Origin: Escherichia coli
GTDB taxonomy: Bacteria > Pseudomonadota > Gammaproteobacteria > Enterobacterales > Enterobacteriaceae
Length of the DNA: 64,000 bases
NCBI RefSeq assembly: GCF_003018255.1
Contig: NZ_CP027440.1
Strand: one strand, 5' to 3'
Part shown: piece after piece, positions 3,848-64,000 of the stretch
Position numbering within the stretch: position 1 is the first letter of the stretch
Layout: the number at the start of each line of letters is the position of its first letter
Position numbers and translations under genes: made by a program
Notes under the pieces: model-generated
The model's database searches: none
What the model saw: the letters and a program-made list of their open reading frames with translations, nothing else
Told to the model about the DNA's origin: nothing

Positions 3848-3946
3848 GCCTGATGCGCTATGCTTATCAGGCCTACGCAGTACCTGCAATATATTGAATC
3901 TGCAGGACTTTGTAGGCCGGATAAGGCGTTAACGCCGCATCAGGCA
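3848..3946. repeat. BIME: two oppositely oriented REP elements between convergent ybiT and ybiU
   Basis: GCCTGATGCGCTATGCTTATCAGGCCTAC and GTAGGCCGGATAAGGCGTTAACGCCGCATCAGGCA match the E. coli REP consensus in inverted orientation. Confidence 0.8.
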
Positions 3947-4027
3947 TTAACAAAGCGCATTTGTCAGCAATCTGAGTAACGTTGAATCGATTTTCTTAAT
4001 CCCACATCAATTCACTTCCATTAACTC

Positions 4028-5287
4028 TCAAACATCCATGCCCAGTGCGCGCTTACCGTGAATGTTCAGATCCTCCAGCGTAAAGCGGCCTTCCCAGTTT
4101 GCTTCATAATCTTCCCGCGGGAAGTCGCCAGGTGATGCGCCTTTTTCCAGCGCCATTTTGACTTTGTGTGCATAAGCCCGATTTTTCTCGCACATTGGCG
4201 CAGCAGGGATATACATCACGTTGCCCCAACCCTGTTGATTGTCTACTGGCGCGACGGAGTGAATCACATCGCAGTGCCACCAGACGGAATCCCCTGCTGT
4301 TATCGCGGGAATGGAAGTCAGCGCTTTAAGCAGTAGTGGATGCCATTTCTCTGAAATGGGCAGAACTTTGCCAGGTGCAACCCCGCACAGTTCATCGTCC
4401 GGTACGTCATCCAGCAGCGGGCGCAATAAAACATACGCCATCGCTTCCGGGATAGGCACCACATGTAACAATCCCTGACCCGATAACATATCAGAGAGCG
4501 CCGTCCAGCCCTGAAACGTGCGGAACACCGAACATTTTGTAGTGTTATCTACCGTGTACTCTTCGACATCGGTCCGGTGTGCAGCATCCCAGGGATCGTA
4601 ATCATCGAAATTACCATTAAACACATTGGCAAAAACGCGCTGATAAGCGGGTAATAACCACCGTTCCAGCGCACCAGAATCGGTATGCGCGCCCAGGCCT
4701 TTAGATGTAGTACCTGGAGGGCGGCGGCGGATCCTGTCTGGATAAATCACACTGATATCAGGATTAAACCACTGTTTGCCGTTGCTTTCAGACTTCCACA
4801 GTCGGTTTAGAAAAGATTGCACAGCAGCCATGTTTTCGCTCTGCCGCGCCTGCATCTGTGCTTGCGACCAGTAAATGGGATAGATTTCGGGACGAGAAGC
4901 CTCCAGCGAGCCGAAAAAACTGTCGCCAGGGCCTTTATAAACATCATCAAAATGATTGATATCAAGATAATCGAGCATGGCACGATCCCACGCCATCGCC
5001 TGCTCGCGAGGGAAATGGCCTTTTATGACTGCACAACCGCGACGTTTAATTTCATTGCGAGTGGCATCGCTTACTGTACCTGCGGCAATATCACTATAAG
5101 AAACTTCCGGCCAAACCGGCAGCCCTTGCGCTTTTAGGGCATCGATTTCAGCAACACGCGTTTCGATTTTTGCAGAGAGTGTATCGAAAACCTGTTGCAC
5201 ATCACTGAGCTGTTCCCGCAGCGCAGCTTTCATCTCTCGGATAGCTGCTTTCGCATCTGTGGGCAGCGTCTCACAGGAAAAAGTCAT
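4028..5287 (-). CDS. ybiU: Conserved protein of unknown function (DUF1479 family)
   Basis: 419-aa ORF whose size and position match K-12 YbiU; no recognisable catalytic motif by eye. Confidence 0.8.
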   Translation of the reverse strand: MTFSCETLPTDAKAAIREMKAALREQLSDVQQVFDTLSAKIETRVAEIDALKAQGLPVWPEVSYSDIAAGTVSDATRNEIKRRGCAVIKGHFPREQAMAWDRAMLDYLDINHFDDVYKGPGDSFFGSLEASRPEIYPIYWSQAQMQARQSENMAAVQSFLNRLWKSESNGKQWFNPDISVIYPDRIRRRPPGTTSKGLGAHTDSGALERWLLPAYQRVFANVFNGNFDDYDPWDAAHRTDVEEYTVDNTTKCSVFRTFQGWTALSDMLSGQGLLHVVPIPEAMAYVLLRPLLDDVPDDELCGVAPGKVLPISEKWHPLLLKALTSIPAITAGDSVWWHCDVIHSVAPVDNQQGWGNVMYIPAAPMCEKNRAYAHKVKMALEKGASPGDFPREDYEANWEGRFTLEDLNIHGKRALGMDV

Positions 5288-5392
5288 ATCAACCTCGCTT
5301 CTTTCATTCGAAAGTAAAATGATTGCGATTGATACATTAAGTTAAAAATAAGTTAACGCAAGATAAAAATATTGAGTCAGTGCACAAAGCGA

Positions 5393-5428
5393 GCAAAAAG
5401 GAGAGAGGCCGAAGTGGTCACTTCGGCC
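5393..5428 (-). terminator. Rho-independent terminator downstream of ybiV
   Basis: Stem GGCCGAAGTG / CACTTCGGCC followed on the minus strand by a T-rich tract. Confidence 0.6.
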
Positions 5429-5438
5429 AGGGGGAAGA

Positions 5439-6254
5439 TCAACTATTGAAAGGAGCGATATTATCCAGCACCGCCTGAATCACATTCAGCGCGCCTTCAT
5501 GATTATTATCATCGGTAGCGTAACGGGCGATTTGTTTAATGTTTTCCGCAGCATTGCCCATCGCAAAGGAATAACGCGCCATTTTCAGCATCTCCGCATC
5601 GTTACCGCTGTCGCCAATCGCTACCACATTTTGCGGTGACAGATCCCAGCGTTTCAGTAACCGCGAAATACCGTTTGCTTTATGTAGACCGGGAATAATC
5701 AAGTCGATAAAGCCAAAACCACTGGTGACGGGTTTCATAATGCCATCCAGCGCTATGTGCAGTTTGTCGATCACTAACGGGATTTGTTCATCCGGCAGGT
5801 TGAGCGAAAACTTGAACAGTACGTCGTCAATCTCCTGATAATCTTTTACAGGTTTCAGGCGATGGTAGTGTTTTGCCATCAGTGCGACGAATGCTTCGGG
5901 GGCATTTTCGCTGACATATGCACTTTGCAGACCGCAGGCGACAAAATTGAGTTGCTTATCTTTTAGCAACTCGCCAATAACAATCCGCGATTCATGTCGG
6001 GTCAGTTCGCCGTGGAACAACTGCTTGCCATGTTCGTAAACCAGTGCGCCGTTTTCCGCGACAAAAGAGATCTCATCCTTTAGCTCAGGAAAGAACGAAA
6101 TAAGCTGGTAATACTGATTACCGCTGGCGACAACGAACTCAATGCCGCGCTTTTTCAGTTCCTGATATTGCGCCATAAAACGTGGTTGGTTGTACGTTTT
6201 GGCGTCGTTAAGAAAAGTACCGTCCATGTCTGTGACGATAACTTTTACGCTCAT
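5439..6254 (-). CDS. ybiV: HAD-superfamily (Cof-type) sugar phosphatase
   Basis: 271-aa ORF; N-terminal DMDGTF motif (HAD motif I) and GDSGND (motif IV); paralog of ybjI in this window. Confidence 0.9.
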
Positions 6255-19039: not shown

Positions 19040-19215
19040 TTACGTTTGAATATTGCTTGAAAGGGTAATCACCTCACAGGAAATTATTGCCCTAAGCAAG
19101 TGTTGTAACTTTCTGCTGATTTTGTAGAATCGGGTAATTTGGTTAAAAAGCCGCAGCAAGGGACTATTTTGCAGCGGCACAGCGTTCAGACAGTTATTTT
19201 GTTAAATGTATTAAC

Positions 19216-21564
19216 ATGCTGAGTTTATACGAAAAGATAAAGATAAGGCTGATAATTTTATTTTTATTGGCAGCACTGTCATTTATTGGTCTTTTTTTCA
19301 TCATTAACTATCAACTGGTATCGGAACGCGCGGTAAAACGTGCCGATAGCCGCTTTGAACTTATTCAGAAAAACGTTGGCTATTTCTTTAAAGATATTGA
19401 ACGTTCGGCCCTGACATTAAAGGACTCACTATATTTATTAAAAAATACAGAGGAGATTCAACGCGCCGTAATTCTGAAAATGGAAATGATGCCATTTTTA
19501 GACTCGGTGGGACTGGTACTTGATGATAATAAATATTATCTCTTTTCGCGGAGGGCGAATGATAAAATCGTTGTTTATCATCAGGAACAAGTAAATGGAC
19601 CGCTTGTCGACGAGTCAGGGCGGGTTATTTTTGCCGATTTTAACCCATCGAAACGACCGTGGTCGATGGCTTCAGATGACTCTAACAACAGCTGGAATCC
19701 GGCATACAATTGCTTTGATCGTCCGGGTAAAAAATGTATCTCTTTTACGCTACGCATCAACGGCAAAGATCACGATTTGTTAGTGGTGGATAAAATTCAT
19801 GTCGATTTAAACTGGCGATATCTGAACGAGTATCTTGATCACATCAGCGCTAATGATGAAGTTCTATTTTTAAAGCAAGGTCATGAGATCATTGCCAAGA
19901 ATCAACTCGCGCGTGAAAAATTGATTATTTATAATAGCGAAGGTAATTATAATATTATTGATTCTGTCGATACGGAATATATTGAAAAAACATCAGCGGT
20001 GCCAAACAACGCATTATTCGAAATCTATTTTTATTATCCTGGTGGTAATTTATTGAACGCATCAGATAAACTTTTTTATCTGCCGTTTGCGTTCATTATT
20101 ATCGTATTGTTGGTGGTTTATTTAATGACCACTCGTGTGTTCCGTCGGCAATTTTCTGAAATGACCGAGCTGGTTAATACGCTGGCGTTTTTGCCCGACT
20201 CAACGGATCAGATCGAGGCTCTGAAAATTCGCGAAGGCGATGCGAAAGAGATTATCAGCATCAAAAATTCGATCGCGGAAATGAAAGATGCCGAAATTGA
20301 ACGGTCAAATAAATTGCTCTCACTGATCTCTTACGATCAGGAAAGCGGTTTTATTAAAAATATGGCGATTATTGAATCCAACAATAATCAGTATCTGGCT
20401 GTGGGGATCATCAAACTGTGTGGTCTGGAAGCTGTGGAAGCGGTGTTTGGTGTTGATGAACGCAATAAAATCGTCAGGAAATTGTGTCAGCGAATTGCCG
20501 AGAAATATGCGCAATGCTGCGATATCGTGACATTTAATGCCGATCTCTATTTACTCCTGTGCCGGGAAAATGTACAGACGTTTACCCGTAAGATAGCGAC
20601 GGTAAACGATTTTGACAGCAGTTTTGGCTACCGCAATCTGCGCATCCATAAGTCTGCTATTTGTGAACCTTTGCAGGGGGAAAACGCCTGGAGTTACGCA
20701 GAAAAGCTGAAACTGGCGATTTCCAGTATCCGCAACCATATGTTCTCAGAGTTTATTTTCTGTGATGATGCGAAACTCAACGAAATAGAAGAGAATATCT
20801 GGATTGCGCGTAATATTCGCCATGCAATGGAAATTGGCGAACTATTCCTCGTCTATCAACCGATCGTTGATATTAACACCCGCGCCATTCTGGGCGCGGA
20901 GGCGTTGTGCCGTTGGGTGTCTGCGGAGCGGGGGATCATTTCACCGCTGAAGTTCATTACCATTGCTGAAGATATCGGGTTTATCAATGAGCTGGGCTAT
21001 CAAATTATTAAAACCGCGATGGGTGAATTCAGACATTTTAGTCAGCGTGCGTCGCTGAAGGATGATTTCTTACTGCATATTAATGTTTCGCCCTGGCAGT
21101 TAAACGAACCACACTTTCATGAGCGTTTTACTACCATCATGAAAGAAAATGGCCTGAAGGCGAACAGCCTTTGTGTTGAGATCACTGAAACCGTGATTGA
21201 GCGAATTAATGAACATTTTTATCTCAATATTGAACAACTGCGTAAACAAGGGGTACGGATATCGATTGATGACTTTGGCACCGGTTTGTCAAACCTGAAA
21301 CGTTTTTATGAAATTAATCCAGACAGCATAAAGGTGGACTCGCAGTTTACCGGCAATATTTTTGGTACTGCGGGAAAAATTGTGCGCATTATTTTCGATC
21401 TGGCACGCTATAACCGGATCCCGGTGATTGCGGAAGGCGTAGAGAGCGAAGACGTTGCGCGCGAATTAATCAAATTAGGATGTGTTCAGGCTCAGGGGTA
21501 TCTGTACCAGAAACCCATGCCATTCTCCGCCTGGGATAAAAGTGGAAAATTAGTAAAAGAGTAG
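19216..21564 (+). CDS. pdeI: Membrane c-di-GMP phosphodiesterase (EAL domain)
   Basis: 782-aa ORF; N-terminal TM segment and periplasmic domain; C-terminal EAL motif (AEALCRW); AT-rich. Confidence 0.85.
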
Positions 21565-21571
21565 TTTACGT

Positions 21572-22900
21572 ATGTCCAGAATCAATAAGTTCGTACTTAC
21601 AGTCAGTCTGCTGATTTTTATCATGATTTCAGCAGTTGCCTGCGGGATCTACACTCAAATGGTAAAGGAACGGGTGTATAGCCTGAAACAGTCCGTTATT
21701 GATACTGCTTTTGCGGTGGCAAATATTGCTGAATATCGGCGTAGCGTGGCAATTGATCTTATCAACACGCTAAATCCCACGGAGGAACAGCTGTTGGTTG
21801 GCTTACGCACAGCTTACGCCGACTCGGTTTCACCCTCTTATTTGTACGATGTCGGTCCTTATCTGATTTCCAGTGACGAATGTATTCAGGTAAAGGAGTT
21901 CGAGAAAAATTATTGTGCAGATATTATGCAGGTTGTGAAGTATCGACATGTCAAAAATACAGGGTTTATCTCTTTTGATGGTAAAACCTTCGTCTATTAC
22001 CTCTATCCGGTAACTCACAATCGTAGTCTGATATTTTTGCTTGGTCTGGAACGTTTTTCTTTACTGTCAAAATCGCTGGCGATGGATAGCGAGAACCTGA
22101 TGTTCTCCCTGTTCAAGAACGGTAAATCGGTGACCGGTGATGAATATAACGCTAAAAACGCCATCTTCACTGTTTCGGAAGCGATGGAGCACTTCGCCTA
22201 TTTGCCGACCGGGTTGTACGTATTTGCTTATAAAAAAGACGTTTATTTTCAGGTATGTACATTGATTATTTTCTTTGCCGCATTGGTGGCAGTGATATCG
22301 GGTGCCAGTTGCCTCTATCTGGTACGCAGAGTGATTAATCGTGGTATTGTGGAGAAAGAAGCCATTATTAATAACCATTTTGAACGCGTACTGGATGGCG
22401 GGCTTTTCTTTTCGGCTGCCGATGTCAAAAAACTCTACAGTATGTATAACTCGGCATTCCTGGACGATCTGACCAAAGCGATGGGCAGAAAATCCTTTGA
22501 CGAAGATTTAAAAGCGCTGCCGGAAAAAGGCGGTTATTTGTGCCTGTTTGACGTCGATAAATTCAAAAACATTAACGACACCTTCGGTCATTTGCTGGGC
22601 GATGAAGTGTTGATGAAAGTGGTGAAAATCCTTAAATCACAGCTCCCCGTAGATAAAGGTAAAGTCTACCGCTTCGGCGGTGACGAATTTGCGGTGATTT
22701 ATACGGGTGGAACGCTGGAAGAGTTGCTATCGATTCTAAAAGAAATTGTTCATTTCCAGGTGGGAAGCATTAATTTAAGCACCAGTATCGGTGTAGCGCA
22801 TTCAAATGAATGTACTACCGTCGAACGCTTGAAAATGCTGGCGGATGAGCGACTGTATAAGAGTAAGAAAAACGGCAGGGCGCAGATTAGCTGGCAGTAG
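21572..22900 (+). CDS. dgcI: Membrane diguanylate cyclase (GGDEF domain)
   Basis: 442-aa ORF; GGDEF motif (RFGGDEF) near the C-terminus; 7-nt gap after pdeI. Confidence 0.85.
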
Positions 22901-22913
22901 AATTAGAATAGTG

Positions 22914-22941
22914 TTAGTACCCCTTAATCAAGGGGTACTAA
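22914..22941. repeat. 28-bp perfect stem-loop at the dgcI-distal edge of the two-gene cassette
   Basis: TTAGTACCCCTT-aatc-AAGGGGTACTAA: 12-bp perfect arms, 4-nt loop, no U-tract on either strand. Confidence 0.7.
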
Positions 22942-22969
22942 TGAATGTGGTAAATCATTTGCAAACATT

Positions 22970-23299
22970 TTACTTTGCAAAAACTTCCGGCCCTTTTATT
23001 GCCAATGTATTCAAAATACGTAATGCCGGGCCGCTCGGTTTTATTTCATTACGTTCCCATTTCGAGACACTTTCTTTTGACATTCCCATTGTATGTGCCA
23101 GCACGGATTGTGACATGCCGTATCGGGTGCGGATGGCTTTGATCTCTTCACCCGTCATTGATTTGACTTTGGCTATACGGGCGCTGACTTCACGAGCTTT
23201 GACCATGACGGCAATGGCATCAACTTCACTATCAGACATCAGGCCCAGTGCATTCAGTTCCTTTGCATCTTCCAGCATCATTTGTAATTTATCGCTCAT
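22970..23299 (-). CDS. HTH (XRE/MqsA-C-terminal-like) DNA-binding protein; candidate antitoxin and autorepressor
   Basis: 109-aa ORF; C-terminal HTH region (YGMSQSVLAHTMGMSKESVSKWERNEIKPSGPALRILNTLA); GAGGTG Shine-Dalgarno; ATG overlaps the upstream ORF's stop by 11 nt. Confidence 0.7.
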   Translation of the reverse strand: MSDKLQMMLEDAKELNALGLMSDSEVDAIAVMVKAREVSARIAKVKSMTGEEIKAIRTRYGMSQSVLAHTMGMSKESVSKWERNEIKPSGPALRILNTLAIKGPEVFAK

Positions 23300-23675
23300 T
23301 TTTCACCTCAATCAAAAAGCCAGTTTCGATCAAATCCTCTATTTGCTTATTGCTAAAGGCCAGAAATGCATTTGCCATTTTTTTGTAGGCCGCCAGTTCA
23401 TCATCTTCGATTTCTTTGGTTCCTTTACTGCTTAGACCACTCTTGGACCAACCATCATAAAAAAACACATGATTTGCTGATTTAAAAAAGATAATTGTTC
23501 TGGCTCCACCACTCTTTCCTTGTTGGAGGGGTAAACGTTTTTTGATGACACCGCTACCTAAATCAGCCTCCCATATGCCCTGAATCACTTCTTCAGCGGC
23601 AGCCATGAGAACTTTATCGTGAATACCAAGTTTTTTCGTGCTTTGGCTGAATCGTCTTGCCTTATACACACCCAT
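23289..23675 (-). CDS. RelE/ParE-superfamily-like toxin candidate (DUF1044/COG4737-type, GKSGGxR motif)
   Basis: 128-aa ORF; AGGA Shine-Dalgarno 7 nt upstream of the ATG; conserved DLGSGVIKKR...GKSGGARTIIFF core typical of this toxin family; AT-rich relative to flanking core genes. Confidence 0.65.
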   Translation of the reverse strand: MGVYKARRFSQSTKKLGIHDKVLMAAAEEVIQGIWEADLGSGVIKKRLPLQQGKSGGARTIIFFKSANHVFFYDGWSKSGLSSKGTKEIEDDELAAYKKMANAFLAFSNKQIEDLIETGFLIEVKNER

Positions 23676-23690
23676 ACATCCATCCTTGTG

Positions 23691-23727
23691 GTAATGTTTA
23701 CTATAGTAACCATTACGCTTATTTCAA
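23691..23727 (-). promoter_or_regulatory. Sigma70-like promoter (-35 TTGAAA, 16-nt spacer, -10 TATAGT) overlapped by a 26-bp palindromic operator
   Basis: Minus-strand read TTGAAA-N16-TATAGT; palindrome GTAATGTTTACTATAGTAACCATTAC (23691-23716) contains the -10 and sits about 15 nt upstream of the toxin ATG. Confidence 0.6.
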
Positions 23728-23900
23728 GTAATTGCGATCAAAACTTTAATTTGGTGTGAAAAAGTGAGAGTTGCCTCGAGTACGATTCATTTTTCTCGAT
23801 TTATGCGTCAGGGGATTTTGTGCGTAAGGGTAGGACATCGGGAAGGGTAGCAGAGGCAGATCGAAGAACAATATCCTTGTTAGATCTGCCTTAAGATTAA

Positions 23901-25932: not shown

Positions 25933-27048
25933 ATGCATCGACAATCCTTTTTCCTTGTGCCCCTTATTTGTCTTTCTTCCGCTCTCTGGGCGGCTCCTGC
26001 AACGGTAAATGTCGAAGTACTGCAGGACAAACTCGACCATCCCTGGGCGCTGGCCTTTTTACCCGACAATCACGGTATGTTAATCACTCTGCGCGGCGGC
26101 GAGTTGCGTCACTGGCAAGCAGGAAAAGGATTATCTGCGCCGCTTTCCGGAGTGCCGGACGTTTGGGCGCACGGGCAGGGCGGCCTGCTGGACGTGGTTT
26201 TAGCGCCCGATTTTGCTCAGTCGCGCCGCATCTGGTTAAGTTATTCCGAAGTTGGCGATGATGGCAAAGCCGGAACTGCTGTGGGTTATGGCCGCTTAAG
26301 TGATGATCTCTCAAAAGTGACCGACTTCCGCACCGTCTTTCGTCAGATGCCAAAACTGTCTACCGGCAACCATTTTGGCGGGCGGATGGTATTTGACGGT
26401 AAAGGTTATCTTTTTATTGCTCTGGGCGAAAACAATCAGCGCCCGACGGCGCAGGATCTGGATAAATTACAGGGCAAACTGGTGCGACTGACCGACCTGG
26501 GAGAAATCCCGGATGATAATCCTTTTATAAAGGAATCCGATGCACGCGCCGAGATCTGGTCTTATGGCATTCGTAATCCGCAAGGAATGGCGATGAATCC
26601 GTGGAGTAATGCACTATGGCTGAATGAACATGGCCCGCGCGGTGGCGATGAAATTAATATCCCGCAAAAAGGCAAAAACTACGGCTGGCCGCTGGCAACC
26701 TGGGGAATCAACTATTCAGGCTTTAAGATACCGGAGGCGAAAGGGGAGATCGTCGCCGGGACCGAGCAACCTGTTTTTTACTGGAAAGATTCGCCCGCCG
26801 TGAGCGGCATGGCCTTCTATAACAGCGACAAATTCCCCCAGTGGCAGCAAAAATTATTTATTGGCGCGCTGAAAGATAAAGATGTCATTGTGATGAGCGT
26901 CAACGGCGACAAAGTGACAGAAGATGGCCGTATTTTAACGGACAGAGGGCAGCGAATTCGTGATGTTCGCACTGGACCCGACGGTTATTTATACGTTCTC
27001 ACCGACGAGTCCAGTGGGGAATTACTTAAAGTTAGCCCACGCAATTAG
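25933..27048 (+). CDS. yliI: Soluble aldose sugar dehydrogenase (PQQ-dependent beta-propeller) with signal peptide
   Basis: 371-aa ORF; signal peptide [20 protein letters not shown]; 4-nt convergent overlap with gstB. Confidence 0.85.
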
Positions 27049-27671
27049 CTAACGGGAATCATCACCACTTTGCGCACTGCGGGGCGTTCAGTGAGTTGCT
27101 GATACCAGCGTTGCAGATTTGGACGCGGTGTCCAGGTCAGGCCAACGTTAAACAAATTGTAGATGAACGGTGCGATAGCGATATCGCCCACACCAAACTC
27201 GTCGCCTGAGAACCATTTTACTTTTGCCAGTTCCGCATCGAGCAGGGCAAACAGGGCGTCGCACTCTTTGCAACTGGCATCAATGGCGGCCTGATCGCGC
27301 TCTTCCGGTGGTGTTCTGACTAATCCCATCAGGATCCCGCGATGAGCATTACTGAGCGTCTGGTTTGCCCAGTCCATCCATTTTTCGGCTTCCGCACGAC
27401 GTGCCGGTGAGTCGATCCACAGGCGTTTTTGCCCGTACTGTGCCGCCAGATAGCGGACAATGGCGTTTGATTCCCAAAGAATGAGATCACTTTCGTCGTC
27501 ACGCAACAACGGCACCAGCCCGTTAGGGTTCATCGCCAGAAAATCAGCATCGTGATTTATCCCAAACTCACGGCCCGCGAGAATTTGCTCATAAGGTAGT
27601 TCCAGTTCTTCGAGCGTCAGCAATACTTTTTTTACGTTGGTTGAATTATTCCGACCCCACAGCGTAATCAT
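27045..27671 (-). CDS. gstB: Glutathione S-transferase
   Basis: About 208-aa ORF of GST fold (start probably the second ATG of the track ORF). Confidence 0.85.
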
Positions 27672-61812: not shown

Positions 61813-62132
61813 GAAAAACCAGTCCTTGCAAAGAAGATTCGAAATGCGCGATGACACACTACTGAAAGCGGAAGGACGAGTAAAGTTGCAATTAAAAGGA
61901 AATGTTATGCATCAGAGGGGGATTTTTAATTCTATATGAGTGTTTAGCATTGTTGCGCTCCTTTCATGTGCAATGCCATATAAAGCCACTGGCGCAGGGA
62001 GCGGCCAGTTGCCGCCGCTCCCTGCCCCCCCGGCCTTCGGGGAACGCCTCGGCGATTTTAACGCCACCAACACCCGTGCGGTTTGTAACGTCGAAGATAA
62101 AACCACCAGGGCAGACAACATGCCAATGCTAA

Positions 62133-62828
62133 TTAATCGCGTTTTTCCAGTAGAGTCCGGTAAATCAGACCACCGATAATACCGCCGACAATTGGCACCA
62201 CCCAGAAGAACCACAGTTGTTCTAATGCCCAGCCGCCCTGGAAGATAGCAACCGCAGTACTGCGCGCCGGGTTAACGGAAGTGTTAGTCACCGGAATACT
62301 GATTAAGTGAATCAGGGTTAAGGCCAGACCAATGGCAATTGGCGCAAAACCAGCAGGAGCGAATTTGTCAGTTGCGCCGTGGATCACCAACAGGAAACCT
62401 GCACTCAATACCAGTTCAACTACCAGCGCGGAAAGCATGGAATAACCGCCTGGTGAATGCTCGCCATAACCGTTAGAAGCAAAACCGCTGGCTGCCGCGT
62501 CAAAACCCGTTTTACCACTGGCAATTAAATACAGCAGCGCCGCCGCAACAATACCGCCGACAACCTGGGCAATTACGTAGCCAACGACTTCTTTTGCCGG
62601 GAAACGTCCGCCAGCCCATAAACCAATAGTGACCGCCGGGTTAAAATGACCACCAGAAATATGACCAACAGCAAAGGCCATTGTCAGAACGGTCAGACCG
62701 AACGCCAACGCCACGCCGGCAAAACCAATGCCTAATTCCGGGAAGCCTGCGGCCAGTACGGCACTACCACAGCCGCCAAAAACAAGCCAGAAAGTACCAA
62801 AACATTCAGCTGCTAATTTTCTGAACAT
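62133..62828 (-). CDS. aqpZ: Aquaporin Z
   Basis: [19 protein letters not shown] with two NPA motifs (HFNPAVT, NPARS); 231 aa. Confidence 0.9.
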
Positions 62829-63253
62829 ATCCACCTCAATTAAAAATTGACCCTGTGAAAAATATGGTCGTTTTATAGGGTCGTCGTAAAAAAGTGACGA
62901 CGGAAATAATGCGCGGCTATTTTAAAAACGAAGGCAAGTCATTCACCAGATAAATAAATCCAGTAAATTTGATTTAAGGCAACAGCGGGTTGCCCCATAT
63001 AGTCATTTGTCTGATTGACAGTGTAGTGCAAGCGAAAGATTTAATCCTTTAGGCGTAATAAAAAATAATTTATCATGCTAATTATTTGATTTTGTTGTTT
63101 TTGCAGACTTATCAGCAAGAGGGAGTATAACGCGATTATTCGCTCATTTTTCAGACATTTGCCATGCTTAAATGTGATGTCATCACGTATTAGCATGGCC
63201 TTTCCCGTTATACTGCCAGCGTAAAGGATAAGTCACATATTTCTGGAGGGGAT

Positions 63254-64000
63254 ATGATTCTTGAGCGCGTTGAAATTGTGGGTTTTCGCGGTATCAACCG
63301 TTTGTCGTTGATGCTGGAACAAAACAACGTCCTGATTGGGGAGAACGCGTGGGGTAAATCCAGCTTGCTGGACGCCTTAACCCTGCTGCTATCGCCAGAA
63401 TCAGATCTCTACCATTTTGAGCGCGACGATTTCTGGTTCCCGCCGGGAGATATCAACGGGCGAGAACATCATCTGCATATTATTTTGACCTTCCGCGAAT
63501 CGCTGCCAGGCCGACATCGGGTTCGCCGCTATCGGCCGCTGGAAGCGTGCTGGACGCCATGCACCGATGGTTATCACCGTATTTTTTATCGTCTGGAAGG
63601 GGAGAGTGCGGAAGACGGCAGCGTGATGACACTGCGCAGTTTTCTCGATAAAGACGGACATCCGATTGATGTTGAGGATATTAACGATCAGGCTCGTCAT
63701 CTGGTGCGTTTAATGCCGGTGCTGCGCTTGCGTGATGCCCGTTTTATGCGCCGTATTCGTAACGGCACGGTGCCAAATGTCCCCAATGTGGAAGTCACCG
63801 CGCGCCAGCTCGATTTCCTCGCCCGTGAATTATCCTCACATCCGCAAAATCTCTCTGATGGGCAGATTCGTCAGGGACTTTCCGCAATGGTGCAACTTCT
63901 TGAGCATTATTTTTCTGAGCAGGGAGCTGGACAGGCGCGATATCGTTTAATGCGGCGGCGAGCCAGCAATGAGCAACGAAGCTGGCGCTATCTGGATATC
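63254..64000 (+). CDS. ybjD: OLD-family ATP-dependent endonuclease-like protein (AAA ATPase N-terminus), 3' end outside the window
   Basis: GGAGGG Shine-Dalgarno; MILERVEIVGFRGINRL...GENAWGKSSLLDAL (Walker A); frame open to the window end; not listed in the ORF track because no stop lies inside the window. Confidence 0.8.
   Translation, partial: MILERVEIVGFRGINRLSLMLEQNNVLIGENAWGKSSLLDALTLLLSPESDLYHFERDDFWFPPGDINGREHHLHIILTFRESLPGRHRVRRYRPLEACWTPCTDGYHRIFYRLEGESAEDGSVMTLRSFLDKDGHPIDVEDINDQARHLVRLMPVLRLRDARFMRRIRNGTVPNVPNVEVTARQLDFLARELSSHPQNLSDGQIRQGLSAMVQLLEHYFSEQGAGQARYRLMRRRASNEQRSWRYLDI

Follow-up and report, generated by a model that had tools for sequence, protein, structure and literature searches.

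The open reading frame that runs off the 3' end of the window, by which we mean the whole 64,000-nucleotide stretch of Escherichia coli DNA analyzed here, is the 5' 45% of ybjD (b0876, proposed name oldB), which belongs to the E. coli core chromosome and whose product is very probably a solitary OLD-family ATPase-TOPRIM enzyme working as an ATP-regulated nuclease. Sequence, translation and extension of the locus place codons 1-249 of the 552-codon gene at 63254-64000 on the plus strand. From the ATG at 63254 the frame stays open up to position 64000, where the window end cuts the gene; these 249 codons encode the N-lobe of the ATPase and most of a helical insertion, and the ATPase C-lobe and TOPRIM domain are encoded past the window end. 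A GGAGG Shine-Dalgarno sequence (63245-63249, plus strand) lies 4 nt 5' of the ATG and is kept in Salmonella and Citrobacter in the intergenic alignment. The Walker A motif GENAWGKSS, which an earlier note had read in a truncated ORF at this end, is present as quoted at residues 29-37 (63338-63364, plus strand), includes Lys35 and aligns to the P-loop of GajA. All 249 residues are identical to the N-terminal residues of YbjD from E. coli RM14723 (WP_000599804.1, 552 aa). The full locus was taken from E. coli record NZ_CP027103.1 (L001), 99.8% identical to the window, and there the complete gene has 552 codons. YbjD as a stand-alone OLD protein is already published, and the early observation in the window is an ordinary one.

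The gene is a fixture of the species. Of 5426 complete E. coli genomes searched by megablast with window positions 62000-64000, 5424 contain the region at 95-100% identity, with every match annotated as aqpZ (aquaporin Z) and ybjD (ATP-dependent endonuclease), and ybjD is single-copy and full length in that same number. Between E. coli, Salmonella and Citrobacter the Nei-Gojobori dN/dS is 0.03-0.04 overall, with dS saturated. Together with the 249/249 identity these figures rule out a chance ORF. The whole window, from opgE to ybjD, is E. coli core chromosome and is collinear with RM14723 at ~98% identity, two small insertions excepted.

Two differences from RM14723 lie away from ybjD. An insertion of ~950 bp between dgcI and rimO (22899-23886), absent from RM14723, carries overlapping ORFs on the minus strand (23289-23675 and 22970-23299) for a RelE-family toxin (PF06296, E 7e-32) and an HTH_3/MqsA-like antitoxin, and from these domain matches looks like an accessory type II toxin-antitoxin pair. 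A 419-aa Gig2-like/DUF1479 gene (PF07350, E 3e-151; ORF 4028-5287, minus strand) sits between ybiT and ybiV, which we take to be the position of ybiU in K-12; its region (3941-5459) is in the window and missing from RM14723, a presence/absence polymorphism. In RM14723 itself pdeI has an internal stop (L002 20180-22528; about window 19200-21560) and gstB a frameshift (L002 27055-27680; about window 27040-27670), and both are annotated as pseudogenes.

Membership in the OLD family, which had been read from the Walker A motif, is borne out by the complete protein. Pfam DUF2813 covers residues 1-375 (E 2e-160), and the C-terminal Toprim domain that the earlier note had proposed as a check was found beyond the window at residues 376-440 (OLD-like_TOPRIM PF20469, E 3.8e-16; 59.8 bits, cut-off 23.2). 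AAA_15 matches above its cut-off (E 7.8e-12), indicating an N-terminal ABC-type ATPase. PADLOC profiles, also suggested at the outset, put the protein inside the family: many GajA models match, with E values down to 7.7e-80, and so does Old at E 2e-24. Within the family YbjD represents a separate subfamily, for which Pfam has a model of its own, DUF2813. Neither outcome that the earlier note had named as a refutation, a full-length protein without Toprim or an HMM placement outside the OLD family, was observed. An exhaustive phmmer search of 1.84 billion cluster representatives returned 1,978 relatives with E ≤ 1e-3, of which 335 had E ≤ 1e-30, and YbjD was aligned with 66 full-length relatives, 28-54% identical, to give a 67-sequence alignment (A1). 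The AlphaFold2 model computed on this alignment (pLDDT 88.5, pTM 0.88) shows five helices (177-195, 202-221, 228-234, 242-255 and 259-277) between the strands 156-159 and 289-293. By comparison of architectures this helical insertion (residues about 161-285) is the counterpart of the dimerization domain of Thermus scotoductus OLD (TsOLD) and GajA; the window holds its start, residues 161-249, at 63734-64000 on the plus strand. In Foldseek searches against the PDB the best 21 matches were all OLD proteins (GajA, TsOLD and the retron-Eco8 effector; E 1e-19 to 1e-11), led by GajA structures 8u7i, 8sm3 and 8x5i (E about 1e-19) and followed by TsOLD 6p74 (E 2e-17) and the retron-Eco8 OLD effector (E 8e-14). 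Further down came PtuA, other retron ATPases and SMC heads, whose matches were confined to the ATPase part.

The first 50 residues of YbjD alone do match AAA_23, SMC_N, ABC_tran, RecF, PtuA and MADS3 profiles, as they would if the Walker A motif belonged to a generic ABC, SMC or RecF-type ATPase outside the OLD family. These matches are confined to the P-loop, however, and all fall under the curated cut-offs; NCBIfam likewise gave sub-threshold, P-loop-level matches alone (RecF, PtuA, MADS3, Eco8). The full-length protein has a TOPRIM domain and a fold of the OLD type, and we rejected this assignment as practically out of the question.

Some relatives of YbjD are giants of 1,050-1,870 aa (P0149, P0162, P0163, P0165, P0174, P0197 and others), in which the OLD core carries an expanded ATPase insertion and a C-terminal extension of ~500-1,100 residues with no Pfam match. 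One of them, at L012 2068-7671, adjoins an ABC exporter.

OLD classes are set by gene context: Class 1 genes are solitary, Class 2 genes stand beside a UvrD-like helicase (Gabija), and Class 3 belongs to retrons (PMC6755086, PMC10568477); in PARIS (Class 4) the two parts are split between an ATPase, AriA, and a TOPRIM nuclease, AriB. Extension of the locus leaves ybjD solitary, as the earlier note had described it. Upstream, across a 419-bp intergenic region, lies the divergent aqpZ (62133-62834, opposite strand) and beyond it lysO. Downstream, the convergent ybjX (Pfam DUF535/VirK) shares 4 nt with the end of ybjD, at its stop codon (L001 11909-11912), and is followed by macA, macB, cspD, clpS and clpA. 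Within 9 kb on either side there is no gene for a helicase, a reverse transcriptase, a free-standing TOPRIM protein or any other defence-type function, and the solitary context is the same in Salmonella (L007) and Citrobacter (L008). The ybjD-ybjX pair is listed as an RNA-seq-supported 'excludon' (PMC12288877), which hints at mutually exclusive expression of the two genes.

An isolated gene with neither partner nor operon, ybjD thus falls in Class 1 and not in Gabija, because the partner gene is absent: no gajB-like UvrD/PcrA/Rep helicase is adjacent. The locus has no annotated reverse transcriptase, and positions 62000-64000 contain no Rfam retron RNA. Both ATPase and TOPRIM are contained in one 552-aa polypeptide, on which the AriA profile matches the P-loop alone (residues 1-51). 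Membership in Gabija, a retron or PARIS was accordingly rejected, the extended locus having no GajB, no reverse transcriptase and no split AriB. For Gabija the profiles and the fold do speak, since GajA profiles are the strongest PADLOC matches and GajA is the best structural match; yet the neighbours are ybjX, macAB, aqpZ and lysO, and the partner is likewise absent in Salmonella, Citrobacter and the distant relatives described below. We therefore regard it as next to impossible that a Gabija system, with the ORF as its GajA, or another multi-gene OLD system is present with its partner just past the window. The earlier note had supposed that partner genes, if any, lay outside the window; in the extended locus the 9 kb on either side contain no partner.

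Five distant members of the subfamily are also solitary and lie amid unrelated housekeeping genes. The first stands between ribH-nusB-thiL-pgpA and dxs-ispA-xseB; the second has a 5'-nucleotidase gene on one side and a HAD hydrolase gene with PTS genes on the other; the third lies near YbjQ-domain genes and a NUDIX gene; and the neighbours of the fourth and fifth are genes for a glycogen phosphorylase and an MFS transporter. No conserved partner gene was found among these relatives on the contigs available, several of which are short.

The region upstream of ybjD has mostly diverged among E. coli, Salmonella and Citrobacter. The longest block conserved in all three is CCGTTATACTGC (63205-63216, plus strand), in which 11 of 12 columns are invariant, Citrobacter having C and not G at 63215. 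It contains a -10-like TATACT (63209-63214) and may represent a ybjD promoter element. A simple two-hexamer sigma-70 promoter scan of 62700-64000 gave no match, suggesting that any -35 element is weak. Just 5' of the TATACT, 55-93 nt upstream of the ybjD start, is an imperfect palindrome of 39 bp, GCCATGCTTAAATGTGATG-T-CATCACGTATTAGCATGGC (63161-63199, strand-neutral), with 19-nt arms that are 84% complementary around a 1-nt centre. The palindrome is specific to E. coli, with no counterpart in Salmonella or Citrobacter, and is a possible operator or hairpin. It resembles a CRP site (TGTGA...TCAC), but its half-site spacing is one base short and the other two genera lack it, and we do not propose it as a regulatory site. 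An Rfam scan of 62000-64000 returned nothing relevant, a single sub-threshold sRNA match falling inside aqpZ.

Across the 67 sequences of the alignment the residues expected of an OLD enzyme are strongly conserved. In the P-loop G29 is kept in 66, E30 in all 67, G34 in 66 and K35 in 60. In the Walker B/D-loop segment LLLIED-PE-TRLH, E293 is kept in 61 and H300 in 66, and position 294 is D or E in 57; in TsOLD and P2 Old the Walker B acidic residue and the OLD-type D-loop His are E276/H283 and D299/H306, respectively (PMC7049728). In the TOPRIM half E385, G386, E387 and E389 are invariant (67/67 each), as are D440, E474, K513 and P514, and D438 and D472 each occur in 66 of 67. The BpOLD crystal structure defines a two-metal site formed by E400 and D455/D457 for metal A and E404 and T506/E508 for metal B, together with K562 (PMC6755086), and killing by P2 Old requires E398, D453, D455, E402, D541, E543 and K550 (PMC7049728). 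Assigned by motif order and spacing, YbjD residues E385, E389, D438, D440, D472-x-E474 and K513 would correspond to this catalytic set.

One position departs from the pattern. The H-loop His of ABC ATPases, found as H310 in TsOLD, H332 in P2 Old and within 'THS' in GajA, is Asn323 in YbjD (L001 11220-11222), and the 67 aligned members of the DUF2813 subfamily mostly have N there (40 sequences), with H in 11, Q in 10 and Y in 5. Since the H-loop His is replaced by Asn323, ATP hydrolysis by YbjD may be slow or atypical, and the variability of the position suggests, on sequence grounds, a slow or purely regulatory ATPase.

YbjD has been in the literature since Schiltz et al. (2019) used it as the database query that defined OLD Classes 1 and 2 and placed E. 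coli in their list of Class 1 members (PMC6755086). According to Atahualpa et al. (2026), who proposed the name oldB, the gene is expressed (PMC13261556). The Keio knock-out left phage sensitivity unchanged, and mild induction at 0.001% arabinose reduced plaquing of two siphoviruses (Bas18 and Bas20) and made plaques of the T7-like phages Bas64-68 smaller. The TOPRIM domain (residues 378-552) was dispensable for this phenotype and the ATPase domain essential, while the K35A mutant retained the phenotype with higher toxicity, and YbjD, unlike P2 Old, did not kill recBC(ts) cells (PMC13261556). Neither PMC6755086 nor PMC13261556 contains a biochemical report of nuclease or ATPase activity for YbjD.

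From the model and the catalytic residues a mechanism can be proposed for the ATP-regulated nuclease. YbjD would dimerize through its helical insertion, as the model and TsOLD suggest. The ATPase head may serve as a switch under nucleotide control, holding the protein in check in its ATP-bound state, a role consistent with the toxicity of K35A and with the analogy to GajA. The TOPRIM domain would cut nucleic acid by two-metal catalysis, with E385/D438/D440 as the probable ligands of metal A, E389/D472/E474 as those of metal B, and K513 as an additional catalytic residue, to judge by the match to BpOLD and P2 Old. Substrates of OLD proteins elsewhere are DNA for TsOLD, BpOLD and Vc OLD (from Vibrio cholerae) and tRNA for P2 Old (PMC12392090, PMC12445682). 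Release of the nuclease against phage by an ATP switch is nevertheless not the source of the observed phenotype, because the TOPRIM domain and Lys35 are both dispensable, induction is required and the knock-out has no phage phenotype. Within the reading of YbjD as an ATP-regulated nuclease, a primarily defensive role is quite possible, about as much so as a housekeeping one or slightly less, and short of probable.

P2 Old, also a Class 1 protein, once activated cuts tRNA-Thr(UGU) in its anticodon stem (PMC12445682), and it has the D-x-E metal-B motif and the lysine in common with YbjD, so YbjD might in principle be an abortive-infection tRNA nuclease of the same kind, triggered by a phage cue. 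An identity of 18% to P2 Old speaks against this role, which we think improbable.

The gene order lysO-(aqpZ)-ybjD-ybjX-macAB-cspD-clpS is kept in Salmonella and Citrobacter with ~90% protein identity. A tblastn search of phage genomes found no ybjD, the one match being a 98-codon fragment in an unannotated 2,060-bp record (OR845570.1) that is probably host DNA. Near-identical matches in a plasmid database include several records of 0.7-4.9 Mb and smaller ones of 42-88 kb with ybjD-ybjX, and these look like pieces of chromosome labelled as plasmid; NZ_OL790696.1, NZ_CP141089.1 and CP061270.1 are among the PLSDB entries with ybjD-ybjX. We accordingly rejected an origin on a mobile element. This analysis adds the observation that ybjD behaves as a housekeeping gene, unlike the usual accessory gene of a defence system: it belongs to the core genome, keeps its synteny, is subject to strong purifying selection and is missing from phages and true plasmids, and the published knock-out is free of phenotype with a modest effect on induction. 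The link to defence suggested in the earlier note draws weak support from the over-expression phenotype (PMC13261556), but vertical inheritance in the core genome fits a housekeeping role better.

A second new observation is that the TOPRIM half is the best-conserved part of the protein despite its reported dispensability. In the 67-sequence alignment the median identity to YbjD is 44% for the TOPRIM half and 29% for the ATPase; residues 378-552 contain 15 of the 18 invariant columns, and among the three genera the dN/dS of the TOPRIM half is 0.018-0.043, again with dS saturated. The invariant columns and the higher identity indicate that selection acts on a nuclease site which the published phenotype does not need. 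That the nuclease half is the most constrained and yet dispensable for the sole known phenotype is the one point left unexplained.

One alternative is a domesticated housekeeping OLD protein whose selected function depends on TOPRIM and concerns the cell's own nucleic acids, in the repair or replication of DNA or in the processing of RNA, the anti-phage effect being a by-product of over-expression. Besides the constraint on the TOPRIM half, the single full-length copy in nearly every genome (5424/5426), the synteny and low dN/dS, the absence from phages and genuine plasmids, and the housekeeping neighbours of the distant relatives all favour this alternative, as do the missing phage phenotype of the knock-out and the dispensability of TOPRIM (PMC13261556). 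The archaeal OLD ATPase Cran1 offers a precedent, acting in cell-cycle progression and not in defence (10.1101/2025.03.27.645713). Set against it, ybjD is non-essential, and its knock-out is not known to have a growth, repair or RNA phenotype, none being described in the 16 papers found to mention the gene; a core location is also compatible with defence, and the phage panel at native level consisted of 68 phages. We consider a housekeeping role of this kind quite possible, if a little short of probable. In its wider form, we propose tentatively that DUF2813 is a vertically inherited, 'domesticated' branch of OLD proteins that may use TOPRIM for repair, fork processing or RNA maturation. The phage effect, for which both the nuclease domain and the lysine of the P-loop can be dispensed with, would then be a side-effect of the ATPase or the insertion domain. 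The mismatch makes ybjD a tractable example, in a model organism, for the roles of solitary OLD proteins outside classic mobile defence.

P2 Old, the founding Class 1 member, is like YbjD a one-gene ATPase-TOPRIM protein with a D-x-E motif (D541/E543 in P2 Old, D472/E474 in YbjD) and a catalytic lysine; however it is encoded by a prophage, whereas ybjD is core chromosomal, and the two are 18% identical (PMC6755086). P2 Old also kills recBC cells and needs both domains to do so, while YbjD neither kills them nor needs TOPRIM or K35 for its phenotypes. Vc OLD, a Class 1 nickase that nicks DNA in vitro, resembles YbjD in being encoded on the chromosome by one gene and in having an anti-phage phenotype (PMC12392090). 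In contrast to YbjD it needs its ATP-binding residues for defence, as cited in PMC13261556. TsOLD (6p74), the Class 1 archetype, shares with YbjD a solitary gene, an ABC ATPase with helical dimerization insertion and a TOPRIM domain, as well as Glu where Walker B otherwise has Asp (E276/E293), the D-loop His (H283/H300) and a two-metal site with lysine. The two proteins differ at the H-loop (H310 against Asn323), are 16% identical in the structural alignment and, by sequence alone, are matched weakly by phmmer over residues 289-441 (E 0.0019).

GajA (Class 2; 8sm3, 8x5i) is the best match to YbjD in both structure and PADLOC profiles, and the published inhibition of its DNA cleavage by ATP, cited in PMC13261556, is a parallel to the hyper-toxicity of YbjD K35A. 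It differs in having an adjacent GajB helicase, absent for YbjD, and in sequence (about 12-16% identity). An additional helical insert in the TOPRIM region is described for Class 2 proteins, whose average length is greater by about 50 aa (PMC6755086, PMC10568477), and the lengths of YbjD (552 aa) and Bacillus cereus GajA (578 aa) are in line with this. Closest of all is YbjD of E. coli K-12, which is the same gene as that of the window, lies between the same neighbours, aqpZ and ybjX, and differs from it in nothing of substance.
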